64,000 nucleotides of DNA from Patescibacteria group bacterium (GCA_049322955.1 JBMOPU010000012.1:543199-607198), one strand, 5' to 3'; shown: positions 3,453 to 8,496, counted from the stretch's first letter. A program made the numbers and translations. Notes: generated by a model not told the origin, from the letters alone.

Positions 3453-3851
3453 TTATTTTGTAACGCTCATTTGTGCGGCAATCACCTGTTTCGCGGAAAC
3501 GTCAAAGGAATCCGAGTTAACCGTAAAACTGACTTTTACTCCCGGTACTGCGCTTACGAGGTCAAAGGATGCGGGAGGTGTGACTTTCCAGGTGCCGTAA
3601 TTGACCGCTTTGCCGCTTCTGCTTTCGGCGGCAAATTGGACATCCAAGACGGTGAGTTCGCGGGTAAGTGAATCAACGCTTTCGACGGTTCCTACCAGTT
3701 TAAGCGTATTGACGACGCCCGCTTTTGCGCGAATATCCGTTGCCCCGCCGCTATTTTTGACGGCGTTGATAATTGCGGTGGTGATGACGGCAACGACGAT
3801 AAGTCCCGCGAGCGCCATGACATAGATCATACTGTCAGGTTTTTTGTTCAT
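3453..3851 (-). CDS. Membrane-anchored hypothetical protein (N-terminal TM helix, extracytoplasmic beta-rich domain)
   Basis: Start placed at the internal ATG (MNKKPDSMIYVMALAGLIVVAVITT), which is preceded by GGAGGAA about 8 nt upstream. The ORF-track start at 3902 would overlap the upstream response-regulator gene. Last gene of a minus-strand operon. Confidence 0.55.
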   Translation of the reverse strand: MNKKPDSMIYVMALAGLIVVAVITTAIINAVKNSGGATDIRAKAGVVNTLKLVGTVESVDSLTRELTVLDVQFAAESRSGKAVNYGTWKVTPPASFDLVSAVPGVKVSFTVNSDSFDVSAKQVIAAQMSVTK

Positions 3852-3898
3852 AACATATTCCTCCGTCCATTGTATTTTTCCATGTTCGCGGAAGGAGG

Positions 3899-4276
3899 TC
3901 AAGACAGCCGGGTTATCCCGAGCATCTGCGTGATTTTTGTGACGACCTCGGCAAGCGATGTGTTTGTTTTTACCAGATAATCCGCTTTCACCGCGTTTGC
4001 CGATTCCTTTTCAGAATCGAGATTTGTGAGGAACAGCAGAGGAATTGCCGCCGTTTTCGGGTTCTGACGTAACTCGCGGGCTACATCAAATCCGTTCATT
4101 CCTCCCGGTAACATGACGTCAAGGATGACAAGATCAAACGGGCCGTCGGAAAGTGCGGTATGTATCCCTTCCTTTCCCGTGGTTACGGGAACAACCGTTA
4201 CATCATGGGGGATAAGCGCATCCTTGTACAGACTGTGCAGGGATACGTCATCCTCAACGAGCAATATTTTTTTCAT
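3899..4276 (-). CDS. Response regulator, receiver (CheY-like) domain only
   Basis: MKKILLVEDD..., phospho-acceptor Asp in LVILDVMLPG, conserved Lys in YLVK. No output domain. The ATG overlaps the kinase stop (ATATGA) and is preceded by GGAGG. Confidence 0.85.
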   Translation of the reverse strand: MKKILLVEDDVSLHSLYKDALIPHDVTVVPVTTGKEGIHTALSDGPFDLVILDVMLPGGMNGFDVARELRQNPKTAAIPLLFLTNLDSEKESANAVKADYLVKTNTSLAEVVTKITQMLGITRLS

Positions 4277-6204
4277 ATGCCTCCTTTTGCTTTCGGAATG
4301 GTAACGGTAACTTCGGTGCCGCGATCTCCCGAGGTCGGACTGGTAATGGTTACCGAACCGCCCCATGCTTCAGTATACGATTTGACGATAAATAATCCTA
4401 ATCCGGTTCCCTGCGCGTCCATATGCTTCGCGTTGGACGCCCGGTAAAACTTGGTAAAAAGATTGTGTTGCTCCGCCTTCGGGATACCGATGCCCGTGTC
4501 ATTCACGCGTACGGTGATTCCGGCGTTGGTCTTTTCTACGGTTACCGTGACCGTATCTGTGTCGTAGCTGTATTTTATGGCATTGGCAATAATGTTTCCC
4601 AACGCATCGCGAAAATGCTTCGGATCAAGTATCGCATAGAGTGATTCCCGGGGTGCGACAAGGGTGACGGTAATGTGACGGCGGTTTGCGAATTCCTCGT
4701 ATTCTTTGATGACTTTTTTGGTGAGCAACGCGATATTGCATTTTTCGGCGGCGGTGGGGAGATGCCCTTGAATAATGCGGGCGATATCTAACAGTTCGTT
4801 GACGGAATTAATCATTTTTTGGTTACTTTCGGCGATTGCCGTAAGTTGCTTTTTCACGTTTGCGGGAAGCCTTATTTTTGCTCCGATGAGCGCTTCCAAG
4901 TTCCAACGGATCGCCGTCAGCGGAGAGCGGAGCTGATGCGCCGCGGTCATGAGGAACTCGTCTTTTGCATCTTCCAGGTTTTTTTTATCCGTGATATCAC
5001 GGAAATTTACCACAACGGCCTGAACGGCAGGATCAAAAAGCAGATTTCTGCCGATGGTTTCGATCCATACCCAGGCACCGTCCTTTCGTTTCATGCGATA
5101 GTTACCGATGATCGAATCGTTCGGACGGAGAATAACGCTTGTAAGATCTTTTTTTGCCCGGGCGACATCTTCCGGATGAATGAAGGAAAACCCATTTCTT
5201 CCCACGACCTCCTCCGGAGTAAATCCGAGGACCGTTTCGGTGGACGGACTTGCGTAGGTTATGGCGGCTCCGGGATCAATAAGCACCACCGCATCCGTAT
5301 TTTTTTCAATGAGCGCCTGAAATCTCCGTTCCCGTACATACAATTTTTGATCGGTTCGCCTGCCGTCCTCAATTGCGGAAGCGACCGTCAGGCTCGTGAC
5401 ACCCACGATAACCATGAAAATCTGGAGCTGTAACAGTGCCTGGTTTATCGAAAAACCGCTCATGACAAACGGGCCCGTTCCGTGGATTGTCGCGTGAATG
5501 ACGAAGATCATGATAAGGGTAAGCACCGTTGCCGTTTCGCGAAGCTTAAAGCGAAATGCCGACCATATAAGCGGCAGGATAAAAAGATACGAGTGAGGAA
5601 AATGTTGCGTAAAAAGCATCACGTTAATTGCCGTAAGAAAAATCAGGAGCAACAAAAATTCGACAACTTTGATCGGTTGTATGCTGATGCGGGGTGCGGC
5701 ATACCATAACAAAAGTAGCGGTGTGAAGATAATTGCTCCTCCCATGTCCCCGAGCCACCACGTCGTCCAGATAGCGCCAAACTGCGCGATTTCGGCAAGT
5801 CCGGTAAGAATGAGCACAACGGTGCCTATGGTGGCGCTTATGACCGTCGCGACATCGCCGGCAAAAAACGCAAAGAGCACCACATACATCGGCCGTTCGA
5901 ATGCGGCTCTGCCGCCGGCGAACCGTTTGACAAGAAACGCCGCGATGAGTGCCTCCAGCGTATTTCCGATTGCAATTCCTACTGCCGCCGCCCAGACATC
6001 GCTCGTTGTAATATTGACGAGAAAGGCGCCGATAAAAATTGACGGCCATATGCGCGTGCCGAAAATAAGCAGGGAAGCGAGTGCGAATCCCGTCGCCGGC
6101 CATATTGCGGAGGCGCTGGGGTTAACGCTGGCAAACGCAAGACCGGCTTTTCCTAAGAGGAAATAACAAGCGGTGAGTACCGCAATAAGCGCAAAAAATT
6201 TCAT
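4273..6204 (-). CDS. Sensor histidine kinase: multi-pass membrane (MASE1-like) sensor - PAS - HisKA - HATPase_c
   Basis: About 8 predicted TM helices in the first ~270 aa, a PAS-like stretch (NTDAVVLIDPGAAITYASP...), H-box AAHQLRSPL, G-boxes NDTGIGI and GTGLGLFIV. Start set to the first ATG (MKFFALIAV); the ORF-track start at 6267 is TTG. Confidence 0.85.
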   Translation of the reverse strand: MKFFALIAVLTACYFLLGKAGLAFASVNPSASAIWPATGFALASLLIFGTRIWPSIFIGAFLVNITTSDVWAAAVGIAIGNTLEALIAAFLVKRFAGGRAAFERPMYVVLFAFFAGDVATVISATIGTVVLILTGLAEIAQFGAIWTTWWLGDMGGAIIFTPLLLLWYAAPRISIQPIKVVEFLLLLIFLTAINVMLFTQHFPHSYLFILPLIWSAFRFKLRETATVLTLIMIFVIHATIHGTGPFVMSGFSINQALLQLQIFMVIVGVTSLTVASAIEDGRRTDQKLYVRERRFQALIEKNTDAVVLIDPGAAITYASPSTETVLGFTPEEVVGRNGFSFIHPEDVARAKKDLTSVILRPNDSIIGNYRMKRKDGAWVWIETIGRNLLFDPAVQAVVVNFRDITDKKNLEDAKDEFLMTAAHQLRSPLTAIRWNLEALIGAKIRLPANVKKQLTAIAESNQKMINSVNELLDIARIIQGHLPTAAEKCNIALLTKKVIKEYEEFANRRHITVTLVAPRESLYAILDPKHFRDALGNIIANAIKYSYDTDTVTVTVEKTNAGITVRVNDTGIGIPKAEQHNLFTKFYRASNAKHMDAQGTGLGLFIVKSYTEAWGGSVTITSPTSGDRGTEVTVTIPKAKGGI

Positions 6205-6274
6205 CGGCGGCGTGGCAGTATTTTTCACCGTTATAGCTGTTGTACCCTTTTTGTCAAAAAAACACAACCGTTCG

Positions 6275-7417
6275 TTAACGCTTGATCCCGAGGCTCAAAA
6301 GTGCGCGGTCGGCTTGTAATTCCCAGGCAAGTGTCCGGGCAAATGCTTTTGCCTCGCGCCCCAGTTGTTCTCGTCTGGCGTCATCTTCCAGTAGTTCGAT
6401 GACGGTGCGGGCAAAGGTTTCGGTGTCGAACGGAGGGATGAGAATTACCCCATTGGGATATACCAGATGAGCAAGGTCGTACGTAACACCGGGGGTGGCG
6501 GTTGCAAGCGCTTCATCCATGGCAAGATTACCGGTGTCAAAATGAGATGCGGAAACAAAAAGACGACTTGCCGCAATGAGACGGAATTTTTCTTCCCTAT
6601 CTACGGGAGGGAGCACGGTGATAAGTTCCGTTAGTTTCAACGATGATATTTTTTTCTCAATTTCCTCCCGTTGAAATCCTGCCCCCGCAATGGCGAGTGT
6701 AGCTTTTGGTCGATTCCGCACCACCATTTGCCAAATATCGATAAGTTCGAGAATGTTTTTTTGCGGATGAAACCTGCCGATATAGAGGGCATCATATCGT
6801 TTTTTCGTGACGGTGCTATGCACTTGCGTTGCCATGGCGACATCCACGCCGCCCCGTATTGGAAAGGCGTTTTTGCCGTATCGCGCGGTAACATATGCGG
6901 CATCGATCGGACTTGCCGTCCATACCGTATCGGCAAAAAGCCGCATAAGACCGATGCCGATAAGGTAGGAAATCCAGAAAATGACACGATGGAGTACGGT
7001 TGCGCCGTAGGCGTGCCTCCACGGGGGAAGTAAAAAAATATAACACCCGACGGCAAGATGGGACGTTCGGTGTCGAAGTTTATCGATGATGGCGGGAAGA
7101 ATGTCCGGGAGACTCCAGGATGATGCGAAAATAATATCGGCCGCGGTATCACGGGAGCCAAGCGCACGGGAAATCGCATGAAAAAGATGTCGGATGCTCC
7201 CTATAAGTACCGAACGCGTTTTGTCCTCAGCCATGCCGACGGAGGAAAGTGCCGTTTCGGGAATCTGACGAGAACGAAAAAAATCTGACGCATCGGGATG
7301 AGTGACGATCGTTACCTGATGGTGTGTCGCTATCCAGCTTTTTGCAAACTCGGCGACGATGACATCACCGCCGCTTACGACTTCATGGTAACTATAGTCG
7401 TATATCCGTATATTCAT
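6275..7417 (-). CDS. Glycosyltransferase family 4 (GT-B fold, GT1/GT4-like)
   Basis: C-terminal sugar-nucleotide-binding half (RLFVSASHFDTGNLAMDEALATATPGV...) is typical of GT4. The ATG overlaps the stop of the upstream Kelch gene (ATGA). Confidence 0.7.
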   Translation of the reverse strand: MNIRIYDYSYHEVVSGGDVIVAEFAKSWIATHHQVTIVTHPDASDFFRSRQIPETALSSVGMAEDKTRSVLIGSIRHLFHAISRALGSRDTAADIIFASSWSLPDILPAIIDKLRHRTSHLAVGCYIFLLPPWRHAYGATVLHRVIFWISYLIGIGLMRLFADTVWTASPIDAAYVTARYGKNAFPIRGGVDVAMATQVHSTVTKKRYDALYIGRFHPQKNILELIDIWQMVVRNRPKATLAIAGAGFQREEIEKKISSLKLTELITVLPPVDREEKFRLIAASRLFVSASHFDTGNLAMDEALATATPGVTYDLAHLVYPNGVILIPPFDTETFARTVIELLEDDARREQLGREAKAFARTLAWELQADRALLSLGIKR

Positions 7418-8427
7418 CGGGAGAAAACATCGTGATGTCTGCTAAAGTCGTTGCTGAACATGCGGGTATTTCCGCCGAACACATGGACTGCTCCGTTGCA
7501 CTCCGCCGCCGCCGCGGCATAACGGGGCTCGCGAAGATCGGGCAATCGGGACCAGGATTCGGTTTTGGTATTGTAGGACAAAACGAACGGTACCACCGCC
7601 CAGCCCTGTTCACCCCCGAACGTAAGAATTTCGTTGCCTAAGGCGGCCGCGGCAAACCCGCACAGTCTCATGGGGAGTGGTGCGCCTTTTTTCCATTTAT
7701 CCGTTATCGGGTCATATATCTCATGGGTGGTGAGGGAGCCGAACCGATCGGTGGCATAACCGCCCAACACATGCAATTTGCCCGCGGAAACGGCGACCGC
7801 AAGATGTTCACGGGGGGTGGGCATGGGTGAAAGCGTTGTCCAGGTATCGTTTGCGATATCATACCGTTCAAGTGTCGCGTATTTCTTGTTGTAATCGGCG
7901 CCTCCAACCGCATACAGGAAATTGCCGATGCATGCGACCCCGAGCGCGCCGCGTTTCGTCGGCATTGGAGAAAGGGATGTCCATGAGTTTTGCTGCGGAT
8001 CGAATCGTGTCACCTCGTTGCGGGGGATGATACGTATGCCGCAACCGCCCACGACGTAGACGAACCGGCCGTCTGCGGCTACACCGGGATGATGGACAAC
8101 ATACGGCATGGACGGCTTTGTGCTCCAGGTGTTTGTCGTCGTATCGAAGGCTTCAAATCGCCCGGTGGGGAGCCATACAGACGGCTGAAAAATTCCTCCC
8201 GCGACATAGACCGTTTTACCGACGGCGGCGGCGCCGAATTCATACCGGTGCGTCGGTAGGTCAGGTGCCGCTTCCACCGTGTGTCGTATCTTTGATTCGG
8301 GGATCGGGACGGGTCCTTCGAAAAAAGAGCGATCGGGTCGGTGCCAGAGATCGCGAAGCACGTACAGTACCGCAAGACCTACTCTGGTGAGCCAAAAAAA
8401 CGGGATGAGGATAGGGTTATGTTCCAT
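7414..8427 (-). CDS. Kelch-repeat beta-propeller protein with N-terminal TM anchor (NanM-like)
   Basis: Repeated Kelch motifs (VYVAGG / VYVVGG / LYAVGG / LHVLGG / ILTFGG / VHVFGG, each followed about 45 aa later by W/Y), N-terminal hydrophobic helix. Confidence 0.7.
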   Translation of the reverse strand: MEHNPILIPFFWLTRVGLAVLYVLRDLWHRPDRSFFEGPVPIPESKIRHTVEAAPDLPTHRYEFGAAAVGKTVYVAGGIFQPSVWLPTGRFEAFDTTTNTWSTKPSMPYVVHHPGVAADGRFVYVVGGCGIRIIPRNEVTRFDPQQNSWTSLSPMPTKRGALGVACIGNFLYAVGGADYNKKYATLERYDIANDTWTTLSPMPTPREHLAVAVSAGKLHVLGGYATDRFGSLTTHEIYDPITDKWKKGAPLPMRLCGFAAAALGNEILTFGGEQGWAVVPFVLSYNTKTESWSRLPDLREPRYAAAAAECNGAVHVFGGNTRMFSNDFSRHHDVFSR

Positions 8428-8496
8428 CGGATGCTACACTATAGTATAACCGATTTTAGGAACAAACGGCTAAATGATGTAAGATAACATACATAA

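Follow-up and report, generated by a model that had tools for sequence, protein, structure and literature searches.

A Kelch propeller gene overlapping a GT4 glycosyltransferase gene, probably one of three juxtaposed units in a five-gene stretch from a Patescibacteria group bacterium

The window, by which we mean the whole stretch of DNA that was analyzed, comprises 64,000 nucleotides from a Patescibacteria group bacterium (GCA_049322955.1, JBMOPU010000012.1:543199-607198). This report is about positions 3453-8427, where five consecutive open reading frames lie on the minus strand with no genes between them. In the direction of transcription, they encode a Kelch protein (7414-8427; 337 amino acids, with an N-terminal helix and then a six-bladed β-propeller), a GT4-family glycosyltransferase (6275-7417; 380 amino acids), a sensor histidine kinase with the architecture MASE1-PAS-HisKA-HATPase (4273-6228; 651 amino acids), a stand-alone CheY-like receiver, or response regulator (3899-4276; 125 amino acids), and a small membrane protein without any match in Pfam or NCBIfam (3453-3851; 132 amino acids). 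We will call the GT4-family glycosyltransferase GT4. An earlier reading of the DNA by itself (the sequence-only reading) had proposed that these genes form a single operon, in which the kinase and the regulator control an envelope glycan module. We think, with a probability of roughly 0.65, that the stretch instead consists of three units that lie side by side in a conserved backbone of the Gottesmanbacteria type, and not of one functional operon. The three putative transcription units are Kelch-GT4, kinase-regulator, and the small gene.

All five genes are present with the domains that the sequence-only reading had named, as far as Pfam assigns them. Both of the ATGA stop/start overlaps that it had reported are present as well, at 7414-7417 (Kelch/GT4) and at 4273-4276 (kinase/regulator), and translational coupling at these two junctions is supported. 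An AGGAGG Shine-Dalgarno (SD) sequence lies ahead of the kinase/regulator overlap. There is no SD sequence ahead of the Kelch/GT4 overlap, so GT4 is probably expressed by termination-reinitiation.

The reported spacing of 0-22 nucleotides does not hold at the two other junctions, because it was built on the TTG starts of the longest open reading frames (6267 and 3902). The kinase starts at the GTG at 6228, which is conserved among relatives and is also the choice of the Prokaryotic Genome Annotation Pipeline (PGAP). Like PGAP, the database gene calls give a kinase of 651 amino acids, and the start context GTGAAAAA.AC is conserved. (An alternative start is the ATG at 6204.) This leaves a gap of 46 nucleotides after GT4. 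The small gene starts at the ATG at 3851, which follows a GGAGG ribosome-binding site and fits the N-termini of the homologs; this leaves a gap of 47 nucleotides after the regulator. The TTG at 3902 instead belongs to the -35 element of a promoter-like site that relatives share.

Near-identical contigs and the top homologs assign the organism to Patescibacteria/Microgenomates, and among species-level genomes, the nearest is a metagenome-assembled genome (MAG) of Candidatus Gottesmanbacteria, whose Kelch protein is 70% identical. Among the relatives, the backbone has the order hydrolase and ABC exporter, then the variable units, then the small gene, and then a convergent cysS. We found four configurations of the variable units. 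Both modules are at the site, in the same five-gene order, in the window and in L007, L013, and L015 (locus numbers refer to the loci of relatives). In L008/L014, Kelch-GT4 is followed directly by the small gene, without the kinase or the regulator. In L093, L094, and L095, only the kinase and the regulator are at the site, without Kelch or GT4 (the kinases are 58%, 55%, and 47% identical to the one in the window); in these loci, the divergent ABC exporter gene is followed by kinase-regulator-(SelR)-small gene and by the convergent cysS. The fourth configuration is rearranged: in L009, L016, and L017, Kelch-GT4 occurs with the ABC gene inverted and with no kinase, and about 6 kb separate Kelch from a homolog of the regulator (49% identity). 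In a neighbor-joining tree of ABC and CysS (no bootstrap), these states of presence are interleaved, and therefore the modules seem to have been lost or gained repeatedly and independently. The small gene adjoins cysS in every relative, and its position and promoter are unchanged where both modules are absent or have moved (L009 and L095).

Promoter-like motifs also divide the stretch. Ahead of the kinase, a candidate promoter at 6239-6267 on the minus strand consists of TTGTGT (6267-6262), a 17-nucleotide spacer, and TACAAC (6244-6239). This motif (TTGTGT/TTGAAT-N17-TACAA[AC]) lies about 10 nucleotides before the GTGAAAAA.AC start and is kept in L007, L013, L015, L093, and L094. In L093 and L094, it is a divergent ABC transporter gene, not GT4, that lies upstream. 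Ahead of the small gene, a candidate promoter at 3874-3902 on the minus strand overlaps the stop codon of the regulator and consists of TTGACC (3902-3897), a 17-nucleotide spacer, and AAAAAT (3879-3874). In an alignment of eight loci, TTGAC-N17-A.AAT is invariant ahead of the small gene, irrespective of whether the regulator, GT4, or SelR lies upstream; it is also found in L093 and L094, and across the family the site reads TTGACA-N17-xAxAAT. Ahead of Kelch, the -10-like hexamer TATACT (8443-8448, minus strand) is followed by a leader of 15 nucleotides up to the ATG, with no SD sequence. Relatives carry GGTATAAT or GATATAAT at the equivalent spot; this is a putative conserved -10 element of the TATAAT type.

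Both Kelch (ATG) and the kinase (GTG) start 10-15 nucleotides past a conserved -10-like hexamer, without an SD sequence (8428-8448 and 6226-6244). This suggests very short-leader or leaderless translation of these two genes; the regulator and the small gene have strong SD sequences.

A single five-gene operon is thus at odds both with the relatives, in which the block is not conserved together, and with the conserved promoter-like motifs inside it. Control of the glycan module by the two-component system is likewise unsupported, because Kelch-GT4 and kinase-regulator occur independently at the same site; the knock-out alleles described below also spare the kinase and the regulator.

We scanned one genome per species for the Kelch-GT4 pairing and found full-length orthologs of Kelch (39-70% identity) at 18 loci, all of them Microgenomates-type. 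In 18 of these 18 species-level Microgenomates genomes, an ortholog of GT4 is directly downstream of Kelch on the same strand. The ATGA overlap is kept at 12 of the 18 loci, and the remaining six have gaps of 0-19 nucleotides. Beside 62 Kelch loci of other phyla, which are more distantly related, no homolog of GT4 was detected. GT4 itself belongs to a narrow subfamily (44 matches of 278-405 amino acids), whose members share contigs with the Kelch family.

In other Microgenomates, the neighbors of the pair include GT2 glycosyltransferases, DUF2079 proteins, methyltransferases, a Wzx-type flippase, radical-SAM proteins, and epimerases, and at some loci the pair is accompanied by another GT4 together with a PfkB sugar kinase. 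These surrounding glycan genes support the link to glycan synthesis that the sequence-only reading had proposed. In a second clade, the genes receiver(-receiver)-GT4-PfkB-Kelch-GT4 lie on a single strand with overlapping stops and starts and with no kinase near (L018:4060-9138, L023:4113-9126, and L028:4394-8994; the first GT4 in these clusters has 412 amino acids). Full-text literature searches found no published paper on a pairing of Kelch with GT4 in these bacteria. The pairing is unreported; its component parts are familiar.

Natural knock-out alleles provide another way to separate the units. We surveyed alleles by looking up exact sequences in near-identical contigs, which match to at least 99.9% apart from the alleles. 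Intact GT4, with 380 amino acids, is found on 11 contigs, including a contig of 990 kb that carries the proteins MFZ5535091-98. An allele with an additional T at nucleotide 731 of the gene, which leaves open reading frames of 253 and 138 amino acids, is found on 10 contigs. A frameshift from A7 to A6 at nucleotides 763-769 (259 and 113 amino acids) is found in three sequence backgrounds (100, 98, and 96% identity), an N-terminally truncated form of 311 amino acids on one 22-kb contig, and forms of 319 and 329 amino acids on short contigs. In Kelch, there is a nonsense allele (K71*, from A to T at nucleotide 211) on one contig (L097) and a split into 100 and 183 amino acids in two sequence backgrounds. 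The alleles are located at 6275-8427 in the window and at L001:11011-12154, L002:10958-12099, and L097:491-1504. Taken together, Kelch and GT4 have at least five independent knock-out alleles.

For six neighboring genes (the kinase, the regulator, the small gene, the ABC gene, the hydrolase, and CysS), clusters at 90% identity contain full-length forms only, except for two CysS fragments, which come from contigs of about 1 kb and reflect contig ends. The five robust disruptive alleles all fall within about 24% of the surveyed coding length, which has a chance of about 7e-4 under a uniform rate. The kinase gene contains three A7 or A8 runs and has zero frameshift alleles, so homopolymer error does not seem to be rampant in these assemblies. 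We also considered that the A7 run in GT4 might be a dedicated tract for phase variation. Programmed phase variation is unsupported, because this run is not conserved in other species and because the similar A7 and A8 runs of the kinase show no variants.

Because knock-outs are confined to Kelch and GT4, we think that the pair shares one dispensable function, which is distinct from those of the other three genes in the stretch. The pair is conserved in the long term across species, so fluctuating selection on a surface feature fits better than simple decay. Kelch-GT4 is probably a dispensable and variable unit that makes a surface glycoconjugate.

What might the Kelch protein do? It matches the Pfam models Kelch_1 (142.5 bits, with a cut-off of 20.1, in five stretches) and Kelch_6 (145 bits). 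In its AlphaFold2 model (mean pLDDT 93.7), a helix at residues 5-29 and a linker are followed by 24 strands that form six four-stranded blades, and the propeller is closed by an N-terminal strand. Across 26 orthologs, 35 residues are invariant, and many of these are in the D-A and B-C loops. In the model, the family invariants E63, H112/H113, R132, E207/H208, E236, E273/Q274, and Y303 appear to lie in loops of one face. As this is the face by which Keap1 binds its ligand, a specific conserved ligand-binding or catalytic pocket is likely.

The propeller had been described as NanM-like or galactose-oxidase-like. Neither is among the top 50-60 matches in a profile search of the PDB or in Foldseek; the best matches by both methods are the designed propeller SAKe6, Keap1, KLHL3/12/17/20, and NS1-BP. 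An identity as a NanM/YjhT mutarotase is also rejected by the NCBIfam models (NanM, 42.7 bits with a cut-off of 416; YjhT, 40 with a cut-off of 256.35), for which about 120 residues are aligned. There is a partial match to Pfam NANM (51.9 bits, over 117 of 350 profile positions), and some homologs are labeled "mutarotase." A copper radical oxidase (galactose oxidase or GlxA, family AA5) can be rejected too: the Pfam scan finds neither Glyoxal_oxid_N nor DUF1929, the protein has six blades and just 337 residues, and the sole cysteine near the channel (C256) is not invariant.

The claim that Kelch is anchored in the membrane is plausible, given the modeled helix and its Kyte-Doolittle hydropathy over 19 residues (2.03 in the window's protein); which side of the membrane the propeller faces is ambiguous. 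The helix carries a conserved basic residue and a LIPF-type motif. In 24 of 25 orthologs, lysine and arginine are more abundant in the flank of the helix next to the propeller, and the N-terminal tail has 0-2 of them. By the positive-inside rule, this charge bias would put the propeller in the cytoplasm, on the same side as GT4.

GT4 matches Glycos_transf_1, the C-terminal nucleotide-sugar domain, with 71.2 bits (cut-off 26.4). The N-terminal (acceptor) domain is divergent and stays below the cut-offs of Glyco_trans_4_4 (23.9 vs. 29.7) and Glyco_transf_4 (16.7 vs. 28.5). No equivalog model in NCBIfam is reached. The relatives of GT4 in the PDB (SPS, TarM, and PimB') are distant and are aligned via the C-terminal donor domain. 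Residues 145-163 (6929-6985 in the window) form a marginally hydrophobic segment of 19 residues (Kyte-Doolittle hydropathy of 1.64), which could be a helix that interacts with the membrane.

Judged by analogy, the closest functional analogue of Kelch-GT4 is CslA-GlxA from Streptomyces. There, the glycan synthase CslA is active in a complex with GlxA, a galactose-oxidase-like propeller anchored in the membrane (bioRxiv 10.1101/2023.11.20.567928), and this propeller protein is needed for full transferase activity (bioRxiv 10.1101/2023.11.20.567928; PMC3543389). In both systems, a glycosyltransferase gene adjoins the gene for a Kelch-type propeller that is anchored by a single helix. In contrast to GT4, which is soluble, CslA belongs to family GT2 and is an integral membrane protein. 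The propeller of GlxA, a copper radical oxidase that has additional domains and a Cys-Tyr cofactor, consists of seven blades, whereas the Kelch protein has six blades within 337 residues, lacks Glyoxal_oxid and DUF1929, and has a predicted topology that leans towards the cytoplasm.

Keap1 and the KLHL proteins match best both in the profile search (E values as low as about 1e-87) and in the fold search (target-normalized TM-scores of about 0.82-0.87, with root-mean-square deviations of 1.2-1.7 Å). The invariants of the Kelch family lie in the D-A and B-C loops, the face by which Keap1 binds its substrate. On the other hand, the window's Kelch protein is bacterial, is tethered by a helix, is paired with a glycosyltransferase, and has no BTB or BACK domain. 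The similarity may in large part be just the canonical Kelch consensus. NanM/YjhT is also a six-bladed propeller of the Kelch type, but there is no sialic-acid gene context here.

We propose that the first of the three units, the Kelch-GT4 dicistron, is transcribed from its own promoter with a short leader and that GT4 is translated by termination-reinitiation at the ATGA without an SD sequence. GT4 would be a cytoplasmic retaining enzyme of the GT-B fold that takes a sugar off its nucleotide-sugar donor and transfers it to an acceptor associated with the membrane. The loop face of the propeller would act as a partner subunit, which might bind or process the acceptor or the product, or might keep GT4 at the membrane. 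We infer both this relation of enzyme and partner and a role in surface glycans: the product would most likely be a dispensable surface glycoconjugate that mutations have silenced in much of the natural population. The second unit, independent of the first, would consist of the MASE1-PAS kinase and its cognate receiver-only regulator, with their own promoter and strong coupling by the SD sequence. Their output would have to go through protein contacts or phosphotransfer elsewhere. The third unit would be the small membrane protein, with a promoter of its own and an OB-fold that lies outside the cytoplasm.

We can also imagine a more specific version for the first unit, namely a two-subunit glycosyltransferase at the cytoplasmic face of the membrane. 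The Keap1-like propeller would be an adaptor that selects the substrates, such as protein or lipid acceptors for GT4, and recurrent knock-outs would switch the glycoconjugate on and off across the population under pressure from phages or hosts. This would make the protein a bacterial, Microgenomates-specific analogue of the KLHL substrate adaptors. We consider this version speculative and quite improbable as it stands.

Several observations weigh against the proposed division into three units, or against parts of it. We found no terminator-like sites in the gaps between the five genes, and therefore read-through co-transcription is possible. The promoters of the kinase, the small gene, and Kelch are candidate motifs. 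In the second clade, the collinearity of receiver-only genes with Kelch-GT4 hints at some recurrent link, and perhaps at a post-translational one. Receiver genes are near Kelch-GT4 in about 3 of about 10 independent arrangements, which we judged to be indistinguishable from chance without genome-wide counts. There are no fusions of Kelch with GT4 among the 44 matches to the GT4 subfamily or 120 matches to Kelch. Finally, the topology of the propeller is ambiguous, as the charge bias has to be set against the marginal hydropathy of the helix (0.6-1.5 over 19 residues) in about half of the orthologs.

One competitor is the five-gene operon, in which the kinase, through the receiver-only regulator, would control a glycan module of Kelch and GT4, with the small protein as a target or substrate. 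The shared strand, the short gaps, and the lack of terminator-like sites all fit, as does the five-gene order in three other species. Receiver-only genes also head the Kelch-GT4 cluster in the second clade (L018, L023, and L028), and a homolog of the regulator remains within about 6 kb of Kelch in the three rearranged loci. But each module can occur at this site without the other, and conserved promoter-like motifs lie within the stretch, before the kinase and before the small gene. Lacking a DNA-binding domain, the regulator cannot control transcription directly. Also, the knock-out alleles never affect the kinase, the regulator, or the small gene, and the small gene keeps its place and its promoter without the modules. 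We consider a single operon to be an improbable explanation.

The two other alternatives concern the pair itself. Kelch-GT4 could work across the membrane in the manner of CslA-GlxA or NanM: cytoplasmic GT4 would build a lipid-linked or exported glycan, and a propeller with its N-terminus inside and its C-terminus outside would bind or modify the sugar on the outside. A single N-terminal helix ahead of the propeller would suit this arrangement, as would the partial NANM match, the "mutarotase" labels, the precedent of the CslA-GlxA complex (bioRxiv 10.1101/2023.11.20.567928), and the flippase and ABC exporter near some loci; and the invariant set of histidine, glutamate, and tyrosine residues at the mouth of the channel suggests a small-ligand or catalytic pocket. 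In contrast, the charges that flank the helix predict a cytoplasmic propeller in nearly every ortholog, the best matches in sequence and fold are the protein-binding propellers of Keap1 and KLHL rather than NanM or galactose oxidase, the NCBIfam score for NanM is far below its cut-off, and the propeller has six blades and none of the extra domains of GlxA or galactose oxidase. An arrangement across the membrane is therefore unlikely, in our view. Alternatively, the pair might be a decaying remnant in this species, without any function, and the intact copy in the window might be incidental. There are multiple knock-out alleles, one of them about as frequent as the intact allele, and the pair is missing from this site in L093, L094, and L095. 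However, intact GT4 is itself on many contigs, including the longest one mentioned above, and the 35 invariant residues of Kelch and the ATGA are retained across 18 species, at identities down to 39%, which indicates long-term purifying selection. Also, intact and broken alleles on otherwise identical backgrounds fit fluctuating selection better. We consider mere decay to be very improbable.

Few of the Patescibacteria (or Candidate Phyla Radiation) have been cultivated, and hardly anything is known about the chemistry of their surfaces. The conserved and coupled Kelch-GT4 pair is a concrete module by which these episymbionts may decorate their envelope. The intact and broken alleles in the wild amount to a natural genetic screen that ties Kelch and GT4 to one dispensable phenotype, and their coexistence suggests fluctuating selection, for instance on phage receptors or on attachment to hosts. 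The stretch is also a caution for inferences from gene order: tightly spaced, collinear genes in streamlined genomes need not be one regulon.

The kinase matches MASE1 (144.3 bits, with a cut-off of 29.8), PAS, HisKA (45.8 bits), and HATPase_c (94.3 bits) in Pfam, and it has eight hydrophobic segments within residues 12-277, which bears out the description of a MASE1-like domain with about eight transmembrane helices plus PAS. It has the H box and the N, G1, F, and G2 boxes for ATP binding: HQLRSPL (with His431), NAIKY at 549, DTGIGI at 577, FTKFYR at 591, and GTGLGL at 607. The regulator has the phosphorylation residues D9/D10, D53, T84, and K103, and it is indeed a receiver without an output domain, as Response_reg is the only Pfam domain in its 125 residues. 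PGAP names it "response regulator transcription factor" (MFZ5535093.1). This label is unjustified, because Response_reg is the only domain and there is no DNA-binding domain.

A phmmer search of all open reading frames of the window found no other kinase, receiver, Kelch, or GT4 paralog within the 64 kb, and no Hpt (histidine phosphotransfer) protein, second regulator, or output partner for the regulator is found in the window either. The MASE1-PAS-kinase architecture is widespread (2758 matches), and the kinase-regulator pair is an ordinary member of this very common architecture.

The pair resembles two-component systems with single-domain regulators (such as Caulobacter MrrA, Myxococcus EpsW, and CheY) in that a HisKA-type kinase is translationally coupled to a receiver-only protein that has all phospho-acceptor residues. 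Such receivers act by contacts with other proteins or by phosphotransfer, and MrrA shows that they can serve as phosphotransfer hubs (PMC5964349). The match of the regulator to the NCBIfam model for EpsW is weak (37 bits, with a cut-off of 200), and no family-specific model reaches its cut-off. MASE1 is a membrane module for input or for binding partners (PMC6510439; PMC3718329). The E. coli sensors DgcE, YfgF/PdeF, and UhpB share the N-terminal module of eight helices, but their output is the turnover of cyclic di-GMP or UhpA, whereas the window's kinase is paired with a lone receiver. In the relatives that have only the kinase and the regulator, a gene for an ECF-type (extracytoplasmic function) sigma-70 factor and two or three small unannotated genes lie between the ABC exporter and the hydrolase (L093:2433-3979 and L094:2641-4013). 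This insertion is not in the window.

The family of the small membrane protein is narrow: it has 91 cluster representatives, and almost all of them are 116-153 amino acids long. The protein has a predicted transmembrane helix with its N-terminus inside and a linker motif, and its AlphaFold2 model (pLDDT 86.7) has an OB-like barrel of five strands. A near-invariant motif, D-I-R-A-R/K-A-G, lies about 10 residues past the helix in the family; R41, A44, G86, and P93 are invariant, and D39, W88, G104, and A125 are nearly so. The fold weakly resembles CusF/SilF (E = 5e-4, target-normalized TM-score of 0.6-0.68). Metal binding as in CusF/SilF was rejected because no methionine or histidine site is conserved in the family. 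The sequence-only reading had seen this protein as a candidate target or substrate. This is unsupported: it is a backbone gene that stays beside cysS in all relatives, and we found nothing that ties it specifically to the kinase or to Kelch-GT4.

Membership of the five genes in a defense system was rejected as well. The anti-phage models of PADLOC have no match to Kelch, GT4, the regulator, or the small protein, and the kinase has only a generic match to an ATPase domain. A scan with Rfam found just one tRNA, far from the five genes. Several of the MAGs with clearly Patescibacteria-type loci (L014, L017-L021, L023-L026, and L028), which are third-party annotation (TPA) entries, bear the title "uncultured Gammaproteobacteria" or "Pseudomonadales," probably because their taxonomy was mislabeled. 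Finally, in the window's species, a gene for the large subunit of RuBisCO (PF02788/PF00016) lies about 9.3 kb past the start of Kelch, on the side of the ABC exporter (L001:1-683).

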